DNA from: Escherichia coli
GTDB lineage: Bacteria; Pseudomonadota; Gammaproteobacteria; Enterobacterales; Enterobacteriaceae
NCBI RefSeq assembly: GCF_045037415.1
Contig: NZ_CP173438.1
DNA: 64,000 nt
Strand: one strand, 5' to 3'
Part shown: positions 1 to 59,908 of the stretch, piece by piece
Layout: the number at the start of each line of letters is the position of its first letter
Position numbering within the stretch: the first letter of the stretch is position 1
The notes under the pieces: model-generated
What the model saw: the letters and a program-made list of their open reading frames with translations, nothing else
Database searches by the model: none
What the model was told of the DNA's origin: nothing
Program-made: the position numbers and the translations under genes

Positions 1-6026
<6,026 letters not shown>

Positions 6027-7676
6027 GTGAACTGGTACAGAATCGTCTGGCTATTGGCGTTGGTAACTCTGCCAACGCTTGCGGAGGAGACGCCGTTACA
6101 GCTGGCGCTGCGTGGTGCGCAGCACGATCAACTGTATCAGCTGTCGTCATCAGGCGTGACCAAAGTCTCGGTATTACCTGACACGCTCACCACGCCATTA
6201 GGGAGTTTGTGGAAACTGTATGTTTACGCCTGGCTGGAGGATACCCATCAACCGGAGCAGCCATACCAGTGTCGCGGCAACTCCCCGGAAGAGGTTTATT
6301 GTTGTCAGGCTGGGGAGAGCATAACGCGCGATTCCGCGCTGGTACGTTCCTGTGGACTCTATTTTGCGCCGCAGCGGTTGCATATTGGCGCAGATATGTG
6401 GGGGCAATACTGGCAACAGCGTCAGGCACCTGCGTGGTTAGCGTCTCTTACTACACTGAAGCCAGAAACCTCGGTAACGGTTAAATCGCTGCTTGATTCA
6501 TTAGCGACGTTACCTGCGCAAAACAAAGCTCAGGAAGTCTTACTGGATGTGGTGCTGGACGAGGCGAAAATCGGTGTCGCATCCATGCTCGGTAGTCGGG
6601 TACGGGTGAAAACCTGGAGCTGGTTTGCCGATGATAAACAGGAAATCCGTCAGGGTGGTTTTGCTGGCTGGTTAACCGATGGTACACCGCTGTGGGTTAC
6701 TGGCAGTGGCACCAGCAAAACGGTACTGACCCGTTATGCGACGGCGCTTAATCGGGTTTTGCCAGTGCCGACGCAAGTTGCCAGTGGGCAATGTGTGCTG
6801 GTGGATCTGTTTGCTCGTTATCCGCTGAAGAAAGTTACTGAGGAAAAGAGTACGACGGCAGTCAAACTAGGCGTGCTCAATGGGCGCTATCGTGTGACGT
6901 TTGCCAATGGTAACCACATGACATTTGTCAGCCACGGTGAGACAACGTTACTGACGGTAAAGGGCAAACTGAAATTACAGTCGCATCTCGATCGTGAAGA
7001 GTACGTTGCCAGAGTTCTGGATCGCGAGGCGAAAAGTACGCCTCCTGAGGCAGCGAAAGCCATGACCGTGGCGATTCGCACGTTTTTACAGCAAAACGCC
7101 GATCGGGAAGGCGATTGCCTGACCATCCCGGACAGCAGCGCTACGCAGCGTGTTTCTGCTTCGCCAGCTACCACGGGGGCGCGAACGATGACCGCCTGGA
7201 CGCAGGATCTCATCTATGCGGGCGATCCGGTTCATTATCATGGCAGTCGCGCTACCGAAGGGACGCTTTCCTGGCGGCACGCTACTGCCCAGGCGGGGCA
7301 GGGAGAGCGTTATGATCAGATACTCGCGTTTGCTTATCCCGACAACAGCCTTAGCCGCTGGGGAGCGCCACGCTCAACCTGCCAGTTATTACCCAAAGCG
7401 AAAGCCTGGCTGGCGAAAAAAATGCCGCAGTGGCGGCGTATATTACAAGGTGAGACGGGATACAACGAACCAGACGTGTTTGCGGTCTGTCGTTTAGTCT
7501 CAGGTTTCCCCTATACCGATCGGCAGCAGAAACGGCTGTTTATTCGTAATTTCTTTACGCTTCAGGATCGGCTGGATTTAACCCATGAGTATCTGCACCT
7601 GGCCTTTGATGGTTATCCCACCGGGCTTGATGAGAACTATATCGAAACGCTGACCCGACAATTATTAATGGACTAA
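6027..7676 (+). CDS. yfaQ: DUF2300-family secreted protein YfaQ
   Basis: 549-aa ORF; GTG start immediately after the yfaS stop; signal peptide MNWYRIVWLLALVTLPTLA; conserved position in the A2M cluster. Confidence 0.85.
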   Translation: MNWYRIVWLLALVTLPTLAEETPLQLALRGAQHDQLYQLSSSGVTKVSVLPDTLTTPLGSLWKLYVYAWLEDTHQPEQPYQCRGNSPEEVYCCQAGESITRDSALVRSCGLYFAPQRLHIGADMWGQYWQQRQAPAWLASLTTLKPETSVTVKSLLDSLATLPAQNKAQEVLLDVVLDEAKIGVASMLGSRVRVKTWSWFADDKQEIRQGGFAGWLTDGTPLWVTGSGTSKTVLTRYATALNRVLPVPTQVASGQCVLVDLFARYPLKKVTEEKSTTAVKLGVLNGRYRVTFANGNHMTFVSHGETTLLTVKGKLKLQSHLDREEYVARVLDREAKSTPPEAAKAMTVAIRTFLQQNADREGDCLTIPDSSATQRVSASPATTGARTMTAWTQDLIYAGDPVHYHGSRATEGTLSWRHATAQAGQGERYDQILAFAYPDNSLSRWGAPRSTCQLLPKAKAWLAKKMPQWRRILQGETGYNEPDVFAVCRLVSGFPYTDRQQKRLFIRNFFTLQDRLDLTHEYLHLAFDGYPTGLDENYIETLTRQLLMD

Positions 7677-12572: not shown

Positions 12573-13958
12573 TTATACATCCGCCGGATCGATACCGTAT
12601 TCCTGGAGTTTATACATCAATGCACGGCGACTGATGCCCAGCATTAAAGCAGTGCGGGTTCGGTTTCCTTCTTGTTGTTCCAGCACTTCCATAATGATGC
12701 GTTTTTCGACGCGTTTAATTTCCTCTTTTAAATTACGCTCACCGACAGGGGCTGTTTTTGCTTCACCAGCATTACAGACTGGCTGACGAATCTGCGGCGG
12801 AAGATCCTCAGAAAAAATGATCGGGCCTGAATTCATCACGACGGCGCGTTCAATAACGTTGGAAAGCTCTCGAATATTTCCCGGCCATGACCAGGCGGTA
12901 AGCAGTGACATTGCCATCGGATCGATGTCGATAATATCGCGCTGATTCTCACTACTGAATTTTTGCAAAAAGTGATTAGCTAACAGGGAAATATCTTCCC
13001 GGCGATCGCGCAGAGGCGGCAGTATTAAATGAATAACGTTAAGGCGATAAAAGAGATCTTCACGGAAGGTGCCTTCTTTCACCATTGCCTGCAAGTCGCG
13101 GTTGGTGGCAGCAATGACGCGGATATCAACTTTTATGGTCTGATGGCCGCCAATCCGTTCAAATTCCCGTTCCTGCAGAATGCGTAGTAATTTGGCTTGC
13201 AGTACCAGCGGCATTTCGCCAATTTCGTCGAGGAGCAGAGTACCTTCGTTGGCACGTTCAAATAATCCCTGACGCAAGGTTTGTGCACCAGTAAATGCAC
13301 CTTTTTCATGACCAAACAGTTCACTTTCGAGCAACGATTCCGGCAGTGCCGCGCAGTTGACTTTAATGAACGGCCCCTTTGCCCGCCGCGAATTGTAGTG
13401 AATCGCTCTGGCAATCAACTCTTTCCCGGTGCCGCTTTCACCGCTAATCAAGACGCTGGCCTGAGAAAGGGCAATTTTGGCGGTGTCTTTGCAGATGTCC
13501 ATCATCGCCGGGCTGTTGGTGAGAATGTGCCCCCATTGCCAGCTGGTGCTCAGTGCCTGGTGCAGATGACGGATCTCTTTTTTCATTGACTGGAGTTGTA
13601 AAGCGCGCTGAACGATTAAATTCAACTCATCGAGATCAAACGGTTTGATAACATAGTCGAAGGCTCCGCAGCGTAGTGCTTCGACGGCGGTTTCCACTTC
13701 AGCATAGGCCGTCATCAGAATAACGGGTGTCCGGGTCTCATGGCTGCGCATCTCCTTTAGTGCCTTGATGCCGTCCATCTCTGGCATGCGGATATCCATC
13801 AACACCACGTCAGGGTGAATATCGGCAAACAGGTGTAATGCTGTGCGCCCGTTGTTCGCACAATGTGTTTCGAATCCTTGTAGTGCAAAAGCGGTGCTCA
13901 GCATACGGCGAACATTATCTTCATCATCCACAATAAGGATGCGATTAATAGCAGTCAT
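12573..13958 (-). CDS. atoC: sigma-54-dependent response regulator AtoC
   Basis: 461-aa ORF; receiver domain (IVDDEDNVR...), AAA+ sigma-54 activator motifs (GESGTGKE, GAFTGA), C-terminal helix-turn-helix. Confidence 0.95.
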   Translation of the reverse strand: MTAINRILIVDDEDNVRRMLSTAFALQGFETHCANNGRTALHLFADIHPDVVLMDIRMPEMDGIKALKEMRSHETRTPVILMTAYAEVETAVEALRCGAFDYVIKPFDLDELNLIVQRALQLQSMKKEIRHLHQALSTSWQWGHILTNSPAMMDICKDTAKIALSQASVLISGESGTGKELIARAIHYNSRRAKGPFIKVNCAALPESLLESELFGHEKGAFTGAQTLRQGLFERANEGTLLLDEIGEMPLVLQAKLLRILQEREFERIGGHQTIKVDIRVIAATNRDLQAMVKEGTFREDLFYRLNVIHLILPPLRDRREDISLLANHFLQKFSSENQRDIIDIDPMAMSLLTAWSWPGNIRELSNVIERAVVMNSGPIIFSEDLPPQIRQPVCNAGEAKTAPVGERNLKEEIKRVEKRIIMEVLEQQEGNRTRTALMLGISRRALMYKLQEYGIDPADV

Positions 13959-23059: not shown

Positions 23060-24196
<1,137 letters not shown>

Positions 24197-27226: not shown

Positions 27227-28870
27227 ATGGAACTTCTTGTACTTGTCTGGCGGCAGTATCGCTGGCCATTTATCAGTGTGATGGCGCTAAGCCTCGCCAG
27301 TGCGGCATTAGGCATTGGCTTAATTGCTTTTATCAATCAGCGCCTTATCGAAACGGCGGATACCAGTCTGCTGGTATTGCCGGAGTTTCTGGGGTTATTG
27401 CTGCTGTTGATGGCAGTCACTCTCGGATCGCAACTGGCGCTCACCACTTTGGGGCATCACTTCGTTTACCGACTGCGTAGTGAATTTATCAAGCGGATTC
27501 TGGATACCCATGTCGAGCGCATTGAACAACTTGGTAGCGCCTCGTTGCTGGCGGGGTTAACCAGCGATGTGCGCAATATCACCATTGCTTTTGTGCGTCT
27601 GCCGGAACTGGTGCAGGGGATCATTCTCACTATCGGTTCAGCGGCGTATTTGTGGATGCTGTCGGGCAAAATGTTGCTGGTAACGGCTATCTGGATGGCA
27701 GTCACCATCTGGGGTGGTTTTATACTGGTGGCGCGGGTGTACAAACATATGGCGACCCTGCGTGAAACCGAAGATAAGCTGTACACGGATTTTCAAACCG
27801 TACTCGAAGGGCGCAAAGAGCTGACTCTGAACCGTGAACGCGCCGAGTATGTGTTTAACAACCTCTACATTCCTGATGCGCAAGAGTATCGCCATCATAT
27901 TATCCGCGCAGACACCTTCCATCTTAGTGCCGTGAACTGGTCAAACATCATGATGCTGGGCGCAATCGGCCTGGTGTTCTGGATGGCGAACAGTCTCGGT
28001 TGGGCTGATACCAACGTTGCCGCGACCTATTCGTTGACGTTGTTATTCCTGCGTACGCCGCTGCTTTCGGCGGTTGGCGCGTTGCCGACGCTACTGACGG
28101 CGCAGGTGGCGTTTAATAAGCTGAACAAATTCGCGCTCGCGCCTTTCAAAGCAGAGTTTCCGCGCCCGCAGGCGTTTCCCAACTGGCAAACGCTGGAGCT
28201 GCGTAACGTGACGTTTAGCTATCAGGATAACGCGTTTTCCGTTGGTCCAATTAATCTCACCATTAAACGTGGCGAGCTGCTGTTTCTGATTGGTGGCAAC
28301 GGTAGTGGAAAATCGACGCTGGCGATGTTGCTGACGGGCTTGTACCAGCCACAAAATGGCGAAATCTTGCTGGATGGCAAACCTGTCAGCGGCGAACAAC
28401 CGGAAGATTATCGAAAACTGTTTTCGGCAGTGTTTACCGATGTCTGGCTGTTTGATCAACTGCTGGGGCCGGAGGGGCAACCCGCTAACCCGCAACTGGT
28501 TGAGAAGTGGCTGGCGCAGCTGAAAATGGCTCATAAGCTTGAGTTAAGCAACGGGCGTATTGTTAACCTGAAGTTATCAAAAGGGCAGAAAAAACGCGTG
28601 GCGCTGTTGCTGGCGCTGGCAGAAGAACGCGATATTATCCTGCTGGATGAATGGGCGGCGGATCAGGATCCACACTTCCGTCGTGAGTTTTATCAGGTGC
28701 TGCTGCCGCTGATGCAGGAGATGGGTAAAACTATTTTCGCCATCAGTCATGATGATCATTACTTTATCCACGCCGACCGCCTGCTGGAAATGCGCAACGG
28801 GCAACTTAGCGAGCTGACAGGCGAAGAGCGCGATGCTGCTTCGCGTGATGCCGTTGCCCGGACAGCATAA
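27227..28870 (+). CDS. yojI: ABC transporter (fused permease/ATPase), microcin J25 efflux
   Basis: 547-aa ORF; N-terminal transmembrane region then Walker A (GGNGSGKST) and ABC signature. Confidence 0.9.
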
Positions 28871-29075
28871 TATTACGACGCTGACCTGGCGGACTGCTGC
28901 CGCCAGGTCAATATTCTAAAAATACCTTCGTTTCTAATAACCCTATAATTAATCAACGAAATTATAATGTTTCTAAAATTAGAATATAATTTATAAACAT
29001 TATTTAAATGTTGTTACTTAAGTGTTACCGTTGATGCCGCGCAAATCTCACCTGCAATAAAGCGACTAAAAGTAA

Positions 29076-30734
<1,659 letters not shown>

Positions 30735-30883: not shown

Positions 30884-31372
30884 TTAGCGAACAACCGCGT
30901 TGTCAATTTTCTCTTCCGCCTTCCAGACACGGTACTTCACATCCACATTGTCTGGCGTATACACCACGATCGGCAGCTTGCTGTTGTAACGCAGCATTCC
31001 AGCATCGCCCAGATACGCGGTGACAAATTTCTTCTCTTTCTTGCCATCCGGGCAGGCCATCATCGTGGAAACCGGCGAGCTAACTTTATCAAAGACATAA
31101 TAATCATAGCCCCAGCCTTCCAGCGTTTTGCTTTCCAGCTTCCCGCCGAGACGATGCAAATTGCAGTCGACTTCCAGCGTCTGACCGATTAACAGTTCTA
31201 CTTTCAGGGTAGATTCATCTTCTTGCGGAGTTAACTGAATCACCTGACGCTTCATGCCTTTTTCAGCTTGTGGATAAGGCGCGATTTTTTCCAGTGGCTG
31301 GACGCTCTCTGCCGCCCAGGCGGAAGTGGTGGCGAAAGCGGCAAACAATACTGCAGGTAGAATGGTCTTCAT
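30884..31372 (-). CDS. eco: ecotin (periplasmic serine protease inhibitor)
   Basis: ORF track 30884..31393; native start [20 protein letters not shown] at 31372 (162 aa). Confidence 0.95.
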
Positions 31373-32274: not shown

Positions 32275-32527
32275 CTGGCAAGTTTGCAGCCTGGTCGTGC
32301 AGGCCAAAAGCGAACGAATTTCAGACATCAGCACCCAACTGAACGCCTTTACCGGCTGTGAAGTTGCTGTCAGCGACGCGCCGAGCGGTCAGTTGATTGT
32401 GGTGGTGGAAGCAGAAGACAGCGAAACGCTGATCCAAACCATTGAGTCAGTACGCAACGTAGAGGGCGTGCTGGCGGTGTCGCTGGTTTATCACCAGCAG
32501 GAAGAGCAAGGTGAGGAAACACCATGA
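32264..32527 (+). CDS. napD: NapA chaperone NapD
   Basis: 87-aa ORF overlapping napF by 11 nt; its stop overlaps the native napA ATG (ATGA at 32524-32527). Confidence 0.9.
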   Translation: MHTNWQVCSLVVQAKSERISDISTQLNAFTGCEVAVSDAPSGQLIVVVEAEDSETLIQTIESVRNVEGVLAVSLVYHQQEEQGEETP

Positions 32528-32563
32528 AACTCAGTCGTCGTAGCTTTATGAAAGCTAACGCCG

Positions 32564-35011
32564 TTGCGGCCGCTGCGGCGGCTGCCGGTTCTCAGCGTGC
32601 CGGGCGTTGCCCGCGCCGTTGTTGGTCAGCAGGAAGCCATTAAATGGGATAAAGCGCCGTGCCGTTTCTGCGGTACGGGTTGCGGCGTTCTGGTCGGAAC
32701 GCAGCAGGGGCGTGTGGTGGCTTGTCAGGGCGACCCGGACGCACCGGTTAACCGTGGCCTGAACTGCATTAAGGGCTATTTCCTGCCCAAAATCATGTAC
32801 GGTAAAGACCGTTTGACGCAGCCGCTGCTGCGTATGAAAAACGGTAAATATGATAAAGAAGGCGAATTTACCCCAATCACCTGGGATCAGGCCTTCGATG
32901 TGATGGAAGAGAAATTCAAAACCGCCCTGAAAGAAAAAGGGCCGGAATCGATCGGTATGTTCGGTTCTGGTCAGTGGACTATCTGGGAAGGTTATGCCGC
33001 GTCCAAGCTGTTTAAAGCGGGCTTCCGTTCGAACAACATCGACCCGAACGCGCGTCACTGTATGGCGTCGGCAGTAGTTGGCTTTATGCGTACCTTTGGT
33101 ATGGATGAGCCGATGGGCTGCTATGACGACATCGAGCAGGCTGACGCGTTTGTGCTGTGGGGCGCAAACATGGCGGAGATGCACCCGATCCTCTGGTCGC
33201 GCATCACTAACCGTCGTCTCTCTAACCAGAACGTTACCGTGGCGGTGCTTTCTACCTACCAGCATCGTAGCTTCGAGCTGGCGGATAACGGCATCATCTT
33301 TACGCCGCAATCTGACCTGGTGATCCTGAACTATATCGCCAACTATATCATTCAAAACAATGCGATAAATCAGGACTTCTTCAGCAAACACGTTAACCTG
33401 CGCAAAGGGGCGACGGACATCGGCTACGGTTTACGTCCGACCCATCCGCTGGAAAAAGCAGCGAAGAATCCGGGTTCTGACGCCTCCGAACCGATGAGCT
33501 TTGAAGATTACAAAGCCTTCGTTGCTGAATATACGCTGGAAAAAACCGCCGAAATGACCGGCGTGCCGAAAGACCAGTTAGAACAACTGGCGCAGCTGTA
33601 TGCCGATCCGAACAAGAAAGTCATCTCCTACTGGACGATGGGCTTCAACCAGCATACCCGTGGTGTGTGGGCCAACAACCTGGTCTACAACCTGCACCTG
33701 CTGACCGGCAAAATTTCCCAGCCGGGTTGCGGTCCGTTCTCCCTGACCGGGCAGCCTTCCGCGTGTGGTACTGCGCGTGAAGTGGGCACCTTTGCTCACC
33801 GTCTGCCTGCGGACATGGTGGTGACTAACGAGAAACATCGTGATATTTGCGAGAAGAAGTGGAATATCCCGAGTGGCACCATTCCGGCGAAAATCGGTCT
33901 GCACGCGGTGGCACAAGACCGTGCGCTGAAAGACGGCAAACTGAATGTTTACTGGACCATGTGTACCAATAACATGCAGGCCGGACCGAACATTAATGAA
34001 GAGCGTATGCCGGGCTGGCGCGATCCGCGCAACTTTATCATCGTTTCCGATCCATATCCGACGGTCAGTGCGCTGGCAGCGGACTTGATCCTGCCGACCG
34101 CAATGTGGGTAGAGAAAGAGGGGGCTTACGGTAATGCCGAACGCCGTACTCAGTTCTGGCGTCAGCAGGTACAGGCACCGGGTGAAGCAAAATCGGATCT
34201 CTGGCAGTTAGTTCAGTTCTCCCGTCGCTTCAAAACTGAAGAAGTGTGGCCGGAAGAGCTGCTGGCTAAGAAACCGGAACTGCGTGGCAAAACGCTGTAT
34301 GAGGTTCTGTATGCCACTCCGGAAGTGAGCAAATTCCCGGTATCCGAACTGGCGGAAGATCAGCTGAACGACGAATCTCGCGAGCTGGGCTTCTATCTGC
34401 AAAAAGGGTTGTTCGAAGAGTACGCATGGTTTGGTCGCGGTCACGGTCACGATCTCGCGCCGTTCGATGATTACCACAAAGCACGCGGTCTGCGCTGGCC
34501 GGTGGTGAACGGTAAAGAAACGCAGTGGCGTTACAGCGAAGGTAACGACCCGTACGTGAAAGCGGGCGAAGGCTACAAGTTCTACGGTAAACCGGATGGC
34601 AAAGCGGTGATCTTCGCGCTGCCGTTCGAACCTGCGGCGGAAGCGCCGGATGAAGAGTACGACCTGTGGCTCTCTACCGGACGCGTCCTGGAGCACTGGC
34701 ATACCGGCAGTATGACTCGCCGTGTACCGGAACTGCACCGCGCCTTCCCGGAAGCGGTTCTGTTTATTCACCCGCTGGATGCGAAAGCGCGCGATCTGCG
34801 CCGTGGCGACAAAGTGAAAGTGGTTTCTCGCCGTGGCGAAGTGATCTCGATTGTCGAAACGCGCGGTCGTAACCGTCCGCCGCAGGGCCTGGTGTACATG
34901 CCGTTCTTCGACGCCGCACAGCTGGTTAACAAACTGACGCTGGATGCGACCGATCCGCTCTCGAAAGAGACGGACTTCAAGAAGTGCGCGGTCAAACTGG
35001 AGAAGGTGTAA
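32564..35011 (+). CDS. napA: periplasmic nitrate reductase catalytic subunit NapA; Tat signal region frameshifted as given
   Basis: 815-aa ORF from TTG 32564 carries the 4Fe-4S motif CRFCGTGC and the molybdopterin domain; the native ATG at 32524 encodes the twin-arginine signal [22 protein letters not shown] in a different frame that stops at about 32641. Confidence 0.85.
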
Positions 35012-54375: not shown

Positions 54376-55965
54376 TCAGCTCAACGCCAGTAGCTGACGC
54401 GTATACTCCTGCTGCGGTGCGGCAAACACGCGCGCGCACGGTCCTTGTTCCACTACTTCCCCTTGTCGCAGTACGATAACCTGATGACATAACGCGCGGA
54501 CAACGTGCAAATCGTGGCTGATAAACAAATAGGCCAGTTGATGCTTTTGTTGCAATGATTTCAATAGCGTCAATATTTGCGCCTGCACCGTTTTGTCGAG
54601 TGATGATGTTGGTTCATCAAGAATGATCAGCGAGGGCTTAAGAATTAACGCCCTGGCAATCGCAATACGTTGCCGCTGACCACCAGAGAACTCCGCCGGA
54701 TAACGGTGGCGTGTTTCAGGATCTAATCCCACTTCATGCATCACGGCTATCACTTGTTGTTCGCGTTGTGCGGCAGAAAGCGTCGGCTGGTGAACCCGTA
54801 AGCCTTCCTCAATAATTTGCAAAACGTTGAGTCGTGGGTTGAGTGAGGAGTTTGGATCCTGAAATACCACCTGAATGCGATGACGAATAGGTAACAGCTG
54901 GCGGCGATTTAAATTTTGCAGTGGCTGACCGTCAAAGACGATGCTGCCATGAGAGTTAATCAGTCGCAGCAGCGCCAGTCCCGTCGTGCTTTTCCCGGAA
55001 CCGGACTCGCCCACTAAACCCAGTGTTTCACCCGCCCGTAGCGTAAAACTGATGTTTTTCACCACCACATTATGATCCACAATGCGCTTCAAAATCCCTT
55101 TGCGAATGGGGAAGGCAACCTGAAGTTGTTCAACATCCAGCAACGTTGAGGCAGGTTCTGGCAATGGCACCGGGTCGCCAGATGGTTCACTGTTGAGTAG
55201 CTTTTGTGTGTAAGGATGAGTGGGTGAGGCAAATAGCGTAGCGGCGTTATTTTTCTCGACACAGCGACCGTTTTGCATTACCGCCACGCGGTGGGCCAGT
55301 TTTCTAACAATGCTGAGGTTATGAGTAATAAACAGCATACCCATATTCAGCTCGCCTTGCAGTTCGCGCAACAGCTGTAAAATCTGCGCCTGGACAGAGA
55401 CGTCCAGCGCGGTGGTTGGTTCATCGGCAATTAATAATTCCGGTCGCGTTAACAGCGCCATCGCAATCATCACCCGCTGGCGTTCGCCGCCGGAGAGCTG
55501 ATGCGGATAATCTGTCAGCCGTTTTGCCGCCTGGCGGATACCGACGCGATCAAGGCAGTTAAGAATTTCGCCACGAGCCGCTTCCCGACGCATCCCGCGG
55601 TGGAGTGAAAGCACTTCATAAAGCTGTTTTTCCAGGGTATGTAATGGATTTAACGACACCATCGGCTCCTGAAAAATCATGGCGATCTTATTACCGCGTA
55701 CACCGCGCAACGTTTGATCGCTGGCATGAAGCAGCGATTCGCCATGAAAACGAATATCGCCGGAGAGATATTCAACCGGCGGGCAAGGGAGCAGGCGTAA
55801 AATTGACAGCGCGGTAACGCTCTTACCTGAACCAGACTCACCTACCAGCGCCAGCGTTTCGCCAGCCTCAATGTGTAGTGACACATCATTCACTACGGTA
55901 CGAACAGTTTGCTGATGGCGAAAACCCACCGACAAATTTTCAATCGCTAACAGAGTTTGCGTCAT
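54376..55965 (-). CDS. yejF: ABC transporter ATP-binding protein YejF (two nucleotide-binding domains)
   Basis: ORF track 54376..56013; native start [15 protein letters not shown] at 55965 (529 aa); two Walker A motifs (GESGSGKS twice). Confidence 0.9.
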
Positions 55966-55966
55966 G

Positions 55967-56992
55967 CTACACCGCCTTATTAGGATCAAATGCGTCGCGG
56001 ACGGCTTCACCAATAAAGATCAGCAAAGACAACAATATCGCCACCGATAAGAAGGCGGTGATCCCAAGCCACGGGGCCTGAAGGTTATTTTTCCCTTGTA
56101 ACAGGAGTTCGCCGAGTGACGGTGAACCGAGCGGCAGACCGAAGCCGAGGAAATCGAGTGAGGTCAGGGTGGTTATCGAACTACATAAAATAAACGGTAA
56201 AAAAGTGAGGGTAGCGACCATGGCATTTGGCAACATATGACGCAGGATGATACTGCGATCGCTGACGCCAAGCGCCTGCGCCGCGCGGATGTAGTCGAAA
56301 TTACGGGTACGTAAAAACTCCGCCCGCACCACGCCGACCAGACTCATCCAGCCAAACAAGACAGTAATTGCCAGCAGCCACCAGAAGTTAGGCTGTACGA
56401 CGCTGGAAAGTAAAATAATCAAAAACAGCGTCGGCATCCCCGACCATACTTCAATAAAACGTTGCCCCCAGAGATCGACTTTACCACCGTAATAGCCTTG
56501 TAGCGCCCCCGCCAGCACACCCATCACGCTGGAGCAGAGGGTCAGCATCAGGCCAAACAGAACTGAGATCCGCGTGCCATAGAGAATGCGCGCCAGCACA
56601 TCGCCGCCATTGGCATCCGTTCCCAGCCAGTTTTGCCGGGAGGGTGGAGAAGGGAAGGGCTTATCGGTAGCAAAGTTGATACTGGTAGCACCAAAGCGAA
56701 TCGGTGCCCACAGTACCCAGCCGTTATTTTCCAGTCGTTGTTTCAGCCACGGGTCCTGATAATCAGCCTGACTTGCCAGCGGGCCGCCAAAATCGCTTTC
56801 GCTGTAGTTTTTCAACAACGGGAAATACCAACTGCCGTCATAACGCACCAGCAACGGTTTATCGTTGGCGATAAGTTCAGAACACAAACTCAAACCAAAC
56901 AAGAGGAGGAAAATCCATAACGACCAGTAGCCGCGACGGTTATGGCGAAAACGCGCCCAACGGGCCTGATTGACGGGGCTGAGTCGCGACAT
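55967..56992 (-). CDS. yejE: ABC transporter permease YejE
   Basis: 341-aa membrane ORF of the oligopeptide-permease family. Confidence 0.9.
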   Translation of the reverse strand: MSRLSPVNQARWARFRHNRRGYWSLWIFLLLFGLSLCSELIANDKPLLVRYDGSWYFPLLKNYSESDFGGPLASQADYQDPWLKQRLENNGWVLWAPIRFGATSINFATDKPFPSPPSRQNWLGTDANGGDVLARILYGTRISVLFGLMLTLCSSVMGVLAGALQGYYGGKVDLWGQRFIEVWSGMPTLFLIILLSSVVQPNFWWLLAITVLFGWMSLVGVVRAEFLRTRNFDYIRAAQALGVSDRSIILRHMLPNAMVATLTFLPFILCSSITTLTSLDFLGFGLPLGSPSLGELLLQGKNNLQAPWLGITAFLSVAILLSLLIFIGEAVRDAFDPNKAV

Positions 56993-58087
56993 TAACGTCC
57001 CTCAAAGTCTATACGCGGATCGACCAGCGTATAGCTGATATCACTGACAATATTCAGCAGCAGGCCAATCAGGGTGAAAATATACAAGGTACCAAACATT
57101 ACAGGATAATCGCGCGAGACGGTCGCTTCGTAGCCCAGTAAGCCAAGACCATTGAGTGAAAACATCACCTCAATCAGCAGCGAGCCGGTAAAAAACATGC
57201 TGATAAACGTCGCCGGAAAACCGGCAATCACCAGCAGCATGGCGTTGCGGAACACATGTTTCCAGAGAATATTTTTTTCACTTACCCCTTTCGCACGTGC
57301 CGTCACCACGTATTGCTTACGCACTTCATCAAGGAATGAGTTTTTTGTCAGCATGGTCAGAGCCGCAAAGCCGCCAATCACTGTCGCCAGCACCGGCAGC
57401 GTGATATGCCACAGATAATCGGTGATTTTCTGATACCACGGCAGCGAATCAAAGTTAGCGGAAACCAGGCCGCGCAGAGGGAACAGATCGAAATAGCTGC
57501 CGCCCGCGAAGAAGACAATCAGCAGGATGGCAAACAAAAAGGCCGGAATGGCGTAGCCGATGATGATAAATGCACTACTCCAGACGTCAAAACGGCTCCC
57601 ATTATAAACAGCTTTGCGAATGCCTAACGGAATCGACACCAGATAGATAATCAGCGTGCTCCACAATCCGAGGGTGATGGAGAACCGGCAGACTGTCTTT
57701 AATCAGCGTCAGCACCGAGGCGCTGCGAAAAAGGCTGTCGCCAAAATCAAAACGGATGTAGTCCCAGAGCATTTTGAAGTAACGTTCGTGGATCGGCTTA
57801 TCGAAACCGTAGCGATGAGTGATCTCGGCGATCACTTCTGGATCTAATCCGCGTCCGCCACGGTAATTACTGTCGCTGATATTGCCGACGCCCGTTTGCG
57901 CATGGCTGGCGCGAACACCTTCACCGCCTGCGCCGGGTAATACTCCGGCATTGCCAAACTCAATGGCGGCGATGGCCTGGTCGACCGGACCGCCAGGCGC
58001 AATTTGCACGATGAAAAAGTTGATAGTGATAATCGCCCATAGCGTTGGGATCACCAGCAACAGACGGCGGATCAGATAAGCGCCCAT
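56992..58087 (-). pseudogene. yejB: ABC transporter permease YejB, interrupted by an apparent +1 frameshift
   Basis: Two ORFs in different frames (57602..58087 N-terminal, 56992..57666 C-terminal) that together give a 364-aa permease; frames meet at about 57680-57686. Confidence 0.8.
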
Positions 58088-59908
58088 CTACTCTCCCTGT
58101 TGTCTGGCTGACGGCAGTTTCGTCGCTTTATTAACGTCATACCACCAGGTATCAATACCCAGGCTGTAAACTGGGCGTACAGCGGGTTGGGAGAATTTAT
58201 CCCACCAGGCGAGACGGTCTTCCGCCATGTACCACATTGGCAGCATGTAATAATTCCACGTTAATACGCGATCCAGTGCTCGTCCCAACGGCAGTAATTT
58301 TTCTTTATTTCCCTGCGCGGCAATAATTTGGTTGATCAGCGAGTCGATAACCGGGCTTTGCACGCCGGGGGCATTATAAGTGGAATTGATATATTCCGAT
58401 GACCAGGAAATCTGTAAATCGGAACTGGGCCACGGCATCGCCCGCCATACGCGCGGCATCATGTCATAGTCGCGACTGCGCATGCGGTTGGTGATTTGCG
58501 AGTTATCCACCTTGCGAATGTCCATGTTGATACCCAGCCGTTGCAGGCTGTGCTGGAACGGCAATACCCACTGACTATTGCTGCTTGCGGGAAGCAATAA
58601 TTCAAAGCTGAGTGGCTGACCTGTTGTGGCATTAACGCGTTGCTGACCCTTCAGCACCCAGCCTGCTTCGTTGAGAAGTTTGTCGGCTTTTAACAGGTTG
58701 TCACGATCGTAGCCATCGCCTTTGGATACCGGCGGCTGGTAGATTTGCGTGAAGACTTCTGGCGGTAGATCTTTTTTCATTGGTGCCAGAAGCACCAGTT
58801 CCGCGGCGTCGGGGTAATTTCTGGCCGCATATTCGGTATTCTGAAAATAACTGTTCGTGCGACTCCAGGTATTGTAAAACAACGCCTTGTTCATCCATTC
58901 AAAGTCAAAGGCGAGAGTGATCGCTTCCCGCACCCGGCGATCGCTGAATACCGGACGTTGGATATTAAACGCCAGCCAGCGCGTATCCTGGGCTGATTCG
59001 TTCTTTTGCTCATCTTTGATGATGTATTTTTTATCGAAATTTTTACCGGTATAGCGCGTGGCCCAGTTTTTGGCGTCGTTTTCCATACGCAAATCAAAGG
59101 CTCCTGCTTTAAACGCTTCAAAGGCGACATTATCATCGAGGTAATAATCGTAGCGAATGGTGTCGAAATTCCAGCGTCCACGGTTTACCGGTAAGTTTGC
59201 TGCCCAGTAATCTTTCACGCGGGAATAGACAATATTTTGCCCCATTTTCCAGGACGTAATGCGGTACGGACCACTGGCAAGCGGAGGCGTGGCGAGCGGG
59301 TCGCTAATTTTGTGATCTTTCCAGTACTTTTCTGGAAATACCGGCAGCGAAAACAGACTCAGCATATCTTCTTTGCCGGGTTTAGCTAACTCAATGCGCA
59401 CGGTTAACGGCGCAATGGCTTTGACGGTGGTGCCTTTGTAGACCAGACGAAATTGCGGCACGCCTTCGGTCATAAATTTTTGAAAAGTAAACTCTACATC
59501 GCGGGCAGTAATGGGCGAACCATCATGAAAACGGGCGCGTGGATTAATAGCGACCTCCACCCAGGAATAATCGTCAGCATAGCGTGCGCTTTCAGCAATC
59601 AGCGGGTAATAACTGCCTGGTTCGTCATCGGAAGTCGTAAATAGCGTGTCGTACAGCTGCTCGGTGCGTGCGCCCGGATTGCCGCGCAGTGCATAGCGGT
59701 TGAAATTATCGAAGGTGCCGAGGGCAGACAACGTTATTTGCCCACCTTTTGGCGCGGCGGGGTTCACATAATCAAAATGGTTGAAATTAAATGCGTACCG
59801 GGGTTCGCCCAGTACTGCAAAGGCATAGCTTTCCTTGATAGCCTGCGCCTGCGCACCAAAGGTGAACAGAGCGATAAACAGCAGCAGTATGCGCACAATC
59901 ATCTGCAA
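58088..59908 (-). CDS. yejA: ABC transporter periplasmic substrate-binding protein YejA
   Basis: 606-aa ORF with signal peptide (ILLLFIALFTFGAQAQA); family 5 solute-binding protein. Confidence 0.9.
   Translation of the reverse strand: MQMIVRILLLFIALFTFGAQAQAIKESYAFAVLGEPRYAFNFNHFDYVNPAAPKGGQITLSALGTFDNFNRYALRGNPGARTEQLYDTLFTTSDDEPGSYYPLIAESARYADDYSWVEVAINPRARFHDGSPITARDVEFTFQKFMTEGVPQFRLVYKGTTVKAIAPLTVRIELAKPGKEDMLSLFSLPVFPEKYWKDHKISDPLATPPLASGPYRITSWKMGQNIVYSRVKDYWAANLPVNRGRWNFDTIRYDYYLDDNVAFEAFKAGAFDLRMENDAKNWATRYTGKNFDKKYIIKDEQKNESAQDTRWLAFNIQRPVFSDRRVREAITLAFDFEWMNKALFYNTWSRTNSYFQNTEYAARNYPDAAELVLLAPMKKDLPPEVFTQIYQPPVSKGDGYDRDNLLKADKLLNEAGWVLKGQQRVNATTGQPLSFELLLPASSNSQWVLPFQHSLQRLGINMDIRKVDNSQITNRMRSRDYDMMPRVWRAMPWPSSDLQISWSSEYINSTYNAPGVQSPVIDSLINQIIAAQGNKEKLLPLGRALDRVLTWNYYMLPMWYMAEDRLAWWDKFSQPAVRPVYSLGIDTWWYDVNKATKLPSARQQGE

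Follow-up and report, generated by a model that had tools for sequence, protein, structure and literature searches.

Does the split of yejB into two open reading frames, as recorded for one E. coli chromosome, belong to the organism or only to its sequence record? The stretch analysed, hereafter the window, is 64 kb long, and the first-pass annotation had placed two answers side by side for it: an indel error and an inactivated Yej transporter.

The lineage bears on what may be compared. The window is colinear with ST131-type E. coli chromosomes and is ST131-like; an ST410 lineage was considered and rejected, the matching genomes being ST131 references. The closest record found, that of strain Esc20 (NZ_OZ369358.1, 1978506–2042505), differs from it over the 64 kb by 3 substitutions and 0 indels, and on account of these substitutions (C-to-T at 108, C-to-T at 3900 and A-to-G at 23247 in ompC) the window is taken as a sibling of Esc20 and not as that exact record. 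Relative to strain 98194 there are 59 substitutions and 2 indels between 37465 and 45907 (ccm genes, narP, yejO remnant) with near-identical flanks, a patch suggestive of recombination between ST131 sublineages. The yejO autotransporter remnant itself, at 44922–45844, is annotated as a pseudogene in Esc20 and 98194 (internal stop, C-terminus missing), is intact in strain 98212 (2592 nt), and looks like a genuine, lineage-wide pseudogene.

A single added base in yejB

That yejB is split at this place into two ORFs in different frames is confirmed in the window sequence, where the features are as follows.

56992–58087, minus strand: yejB coding region, 1096 nt against the normal 1095, with two ORFs
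57602–58087, minus strand: N-terminal yejB ORF, 161 aa, ending ...SQSCL and a stop
56992–57666, minus strand: C-terminal yejB ORF, 224 aa, starting MWSTLIIY...
57683–57684, minus strand: TT, of which one T is spurious, the wild type having only one (alignments to SK1144, which is wild type, and to 98194)
57680–57689, minus strand: corrupted Eco31I site and flank in yejB, GCCGGT[T]CTC, wild type GCCGGTCTC (inserted bases are bracketed here and below)
58088–59902, minus strand: yejA, substrate-binding protein, intact, full-length model match
55967–56992, minus strand: yejE, second permease, intact, full-length model match
54376–55965, minus strand: yejF, ATPase, intact, full-length model match

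The three neighbouring genes had been called intact in the earlier description, and their full-length model matches bear this out. Alignment of the window with intact SK1144 reveals a single added T (wild type CTGCCGGTCTCCATC, window CTGCCGGTTCTCCATC), so that the inserted base, earlier bracketed as a C, has to be corrected: the wild type reads GCCGGTCTCC and the window GCCGGT[T]CTCC, with the added base at 57683/57684. When one T is deleted, the product is 364 aa long and identical to the intact SK1144 YejB, annotated as WP_000501604.1, and its junction reads ...DSLPVSITLGLW... The expected length of 364 aa is also that of model NF011712 (364 positions), and the junction that had been predicted, DSLPV-SITLGLW, matches the wild-type YejB sequence. 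In terms of this model (NCBIfam; YejB, microcin C ABC transporter permease), the two pieces cover positions 1–135 with 267 bits, which is below the curated cut-off of 445 bits, and positions 141–364 with 495 bits. PGAP labels yejB a ‘frameshifted’ pseudogene in both Esc20 and 98194, and a literature search on yejB frameshifts found nothing specific.

A functional role for the split, whether by programmed ribosomal frameshifting or through a permease made in two pieces, has in its favour that the ORFs overlap by 65 nt and jointly span nearly all of YejB. However, a 71-nt probe matched 5,061 complete E. coli genomes, and in 5,042 of these the gene is uninterrupted, in a single frame; the same count shows that chance ORFs do not account for the split. 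No stimulating heptamer was recognised by eye at CCGGTTCTC, and inspection by eye of CCGGT(T)CTCC, which has only one T in the wild type, disclosed no slippery heptamer, repeat or homopolymer. The second ORF, moreover, could be translated only from an internal TTG start, and the break is in the region of the first permease-domain helices. A functional frameshift is accordingly highly improbable.

Recurrence within Eco31I sites

The yejB insertion falls within GGTCTC, the recognition site of Eco31I. In the ST131 strain EC958 the Eco31I system (RM.EcoMI), termed a short-distance cutter, is on the leuX island, m6A is present on 100% of GAGACC sites, and a partner methyltransferase produces GGT(m5C)TC (PMC4659465); nanopore data detect both marks in the Eco31I-positive E. 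coli ATCC 25922 (PMC12679398). The extra T adjoins the methylated C and is opposite the methylated A. The first-pass annotation had pointed out neither that the insertion is located inside a methylated Eco31I site nor that the same insertion, within an identical 11-nt context, breaks napA at 32589. The other Eco31I sites of the window, with napA, are listed here.

32524–35011, plus strand: napA, 2488 nt against 2487, with the frameshift in the Tat signal-peptide region
32584–32593, plus strand: second corrupted Eco31I site (napA), GCCGGT[T]CTC, extra T at 32589/32590
13734–13739, plus strand: intact Eco31I site in GGGTCTC context (atoC), a context control
51632–51637, plus strand: intact Eco31I site in TGGTCTC context, a context control

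The napA insertion was found by comparing the whole window with 98194. The napA and yejB sites share the 11-nt context CTGCCGGT|CTC on opposite strands, and they are the only CCGGT(T)CTC sites in the window. PGAP treats napA as a pseudogene in Esc20 and 98212; most probably its frameshift is the same artefact as that of yejB, and the gene is to be treated as intact. A third instance, outside the window, is fecA of Esc20 (‘frameshifted’; extracted locus 27858–30183), where comparison with EC958 reveals +T in TGGCCGGT[T]CTCT (GGCCGGT[T]CTCT).

With the window standing in for the yej region and ~120 kb of other sequence included, all three of the three GCCGGTCTC sites of Esc20 are hit. Its GGGTCTC and TGGTCTC sites, and three sites in which T or A precedes CCGGTCTC, are intact. 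The candidate that CCGGTCTC might be the full error motif was rejected on this ground, the three sites preceded by T/A being intact in Esc20 and the three preceded by G all hit. That some Eco31I sites are unaffected means that context dependence must be assumed, which is a point against the explanation preferred below. Strain 98212 has +T at one TCCGGTCTC site as well. A 50-kb neighbouring region, compared between Esc20 and SK1144, has neither GCCGGTCTC sites nor indels; the lack of indels there indicates that the Esc20 assembly is otherwise clean, while on the motif the region is uninformative.

A carrier from another lineage is strain 98212, which has the napA insertion in a nap region only ~97% identical to that of the window. 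It differs from Esc20 by three further indels, all of them in Eco31I sites (two changes of GAGACC to GAACC and one +T, at positions 30997, 31076 and 40109 of the extracted locus). Two of these, 79 nt apart, yield a frame-restored variant IS21 transposase with an accession of its own, and a GTPase gene is broken by the remaining one. Near-identical genome pairs were aligned over 186,390 bases with 19 Eco31I sites, and six of the seven indels are in such sites, for which the chance probability is, roughly, 3e-19; the seventh, located at an insertion-sequence boundary and only 3 nt short of where the alignment ends, is an alignment-edge effect. The enzymes that methylate the motif are encoded in the genome itself, and the indels recur at copies of the motif and are rare elsewhere.

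Eco31I sites also account for two substitutions: in place of GGTCTC, Esc20 fecD has GGTTTC and 98194 atoC has GGGCTC. The former, a C-to-T relative to EC958, is exactly at the m5C position and could be either a base-calling error or a real deamination mutation. The latter, at window positions 13734–13739, gives AtoC a different accession and may be an error of the substitution type at this motif.

A separate matter is how few such sites there are. The window has four Eco31I sites, two intact and two corrupted, against ~33 expected from base composition, and the leuX island has nine in the 34 kb aligned. The strong depletion fits restriction-site avoidance in the core genome, and it fits the mobile-element enrichment that has been reported for EC958.

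Distribution among genomes and in a protein collection

A search of 5,426 complete genomes, for yejB with the 71-nt probe centred on the site, found the insertion in yejB in 19, in napA in 17 and in fecA in 16, so that few assemblies are affected. The 19 genomes with the yejB +T are 98194, A1.S1.126, 439, 446 and fifteen ‘Esc’ genomes. The Esc assemblies, mostly of 5,156,475–5,156,542 bp, clearly represent one clone, and among them all seven non-empty combinations of the three insertions are present, as set out below in the order yejB/napA/fecA.

+++ : Esc 1, 13, 19, 20
++- : Esc 2, 6, 14, 16, 25
+-+ : Esc 7, 26, 27, 30
+-- : Esc 4, 29
-++ : Esc 12, 17, 18
-+- : Esc 3, 10, 28
--+ : Esc 9, 11, 15

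No pair of the three sites passes the four-gamete test. In 439, 446 and 447, which are sister genomes, the patterns are, respectively, +--, +-+ and --+. Such a mosaic, together with failure of the four-gamete test in a clonal organism, means that the insertions are not inherited; consensus flipping at a difficult site can yield a pattern of this type. Esc10, Esc17 and ECKH-100 have at most one difference from the window over 20 kb, yet their yejB is intact.

The identical +T, found in the 19 complete genomes deposited by at least four independent submitters and annotated by PGAP as a frameshifted pseudogene, is a point against an artefact, and could in principle reflect a real shared allele. 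On such a reading a genuine 1-nt insertion would inactivate YejB in an ST131 sublineage and abolish peptide and microcin C uptake by YejABEF. Loss of yej function confers microcin C resistance, and selection by that route is conceivable. However, the carriers form no clade and near-identical sister assemblies differ; the insertions in yejB, napA and fecA, taken together, violate the four-gamete test in a clonal organism; and the same motif-specific insertion is present in two other, unrelated genes. Among the matches listed, long-established ST131 reference genomes have none of the three insertions, whereas a real ST131 SNP, at window position 6868, is common to 419 genomes that include the long-established ST131 references listed. 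(That SNP, CTAGG/CCAGG at a Dcm site, was itself considered as a methylation error, and rejected as such because it is a real ST131 allele in 419 genomes.)

A further difficulty for inheritance comes from a collection of ~15 billion proteins, in which the exact 161-aa truncated product is encoded on only 22 contigs, against at least 1,000 for the wild type. The 22 comprise fifteen NCBI records of chromosome size and seven short contigs (1–9.5 kb) from one run series, ERR10496792–ERR10499191. The short contigs have homopolymer-type indels breaking neighbouring genes, and several of them are from other lineages, at ~99% identity. In these seven the extra base at the same yejB position is G, not T: GGT[G]CTC and, once, CCAGTGCTC. 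Such variation of the inserted base between data sets is characteristic of an artefact at signal level and not of a mutation. A pseudogene fixed in a lineage would be compatible with a clade and with other markers and would be independent of data set; this insertion is neither, and a real loss of YejB can be accorded only a slight probability.

Somewhat different is the possibility that Eco31I sites are true hotspots for 1-base indels in vivo, by nicking or error-prone repair, with yejB, napA and fecA being switched on and off reversibly. A very high site-specific mutation rate would also give motif specificity and mosaic recurrence. But there is no repeat tract or homopolymer at the site (T to TT only), and Eco31I cleaves outside its site, 1/5 nt downstream, so that it would not insert a base within it. 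Deamination of m5C leads to C-to-T changes and not to insertions, and no known chemistry inserts a base there; nor would a hotspot explain why the inserted base is T or G depending on the data set. The listed Eco31I-positive reference genomes are without any of these insertions, where a real hotspot should have produced some, and it is implausible that one isolate should have lost three useful genes at once. This possibility is rated even lower than that of an inherited loss.

The locus, then, is yejB, broken in the record only: with high confidence, the frameshift is a systematic sequencing or consensus error and not a feature of the organism. As regards the two alternatives with which the analysis began, the indel error is strongly favoured and the evidence is against an inactivated Yej transporter.

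Methylation as the likely cause, and known systems

The error is most likely one of base calling, induced by the double methylation of Eco31I sites that have a particular flank. The Eco31I system, located in EC958, is present in 634 of the 5,426 complete genomes (~12%). Its methylase (m6A and m5C) and nuclease genes are intact in Esc20, which has three proteins with accessions identical to those of EC958, and in strain 98212 the system is likewise intact, its protein accessions being again those of EC958. The platform was probably nanopore. The following course of events may be envisaged. Eco31I (EcoMI) methylates every GGTCTC, so that one strand carries GGT(m5C)TC and its complement GAG(m6A)CC; in the GCCGGTCTC context the doubly modified site may disturb the nanopore signal, in response to which the base caller would add one base beside the modified C. 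If the error were near the consensus threshold, assemblies could differ, some having the correct length at the site and others a wrong one. A literature search for nanopore errors at GGTCTC/GAGACC found none, which counts against this explanation, and one on the accession and strain names of the affected assemblies found nothing.

In the cell, YejB is most probably intact at 364 aa and the YejABEF transporter functional, with napA and fecA intact as well. With the Yej importer most probably unimpaired, no story of resistance or pseudogenisation is warranted. The practical relevance is wider, as the error at Eco31I sites appears to seed false ‘frameshifted’ pseudogenes (yejB, napA, fecA, the IS21 transposase and the GTPase gene) in complete public genomes. 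Carriers of the Eco31I methylation system include ST131, Nissle 1917 and ATCC 25922, and long-read-only assemblies of such strains may be affected, with possible distortion of pseudogene counts, cgMLST distances and SNP or indel calls within outbreaks. A cheap screen is to look for GGT[T/G]CTC where relatives read GGTCTC.

Methylation-induced nanopore errors are documented as lineage-, motif- and strand-specific and as inconsistent between replicates (PMC10687267), and such errors in bacterial genomes are also the subject of two further reports (PMC11610573; PMC11610603). The present case is like these in that it involves one short motif, a lineage-specific methyltransferase, inconsistent replicate assemblies and absence of the error by another assembly route. 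The published errors consulted are mostly substitutions, with GCAGC and GCTGG as the motifs in Listeria (PMC10687267), and this is a further point against the explanation. Unlike them, the error here, at the type IIS motif GGTCTC/GAGACC, consists of a 1-nt insertion (in 98212 of a deletion, too) and depends strongly on the GCCGGTCTC flank, and nanopore is the inferred platform.

The second parallel is with the Eco31I/RM.EcoMI system of ST131 (PMC4659465). Esc20 encodes the same three proteins, and the spurious base is within the recognition site. The system as such is ordinary and already described, and it is of concern here only as the likely cause of the artefact.

Genuine yejABEF loss mutants, known for microcin C resistance, provide the remaining comparison. 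The gene and operon are the same, and a real frameshift at codon 136 would abolish the permease. Unlike in those mutants, the lesion here is in the sequence record, as judged by its distribution, its motif specificity and its dependence on data set.
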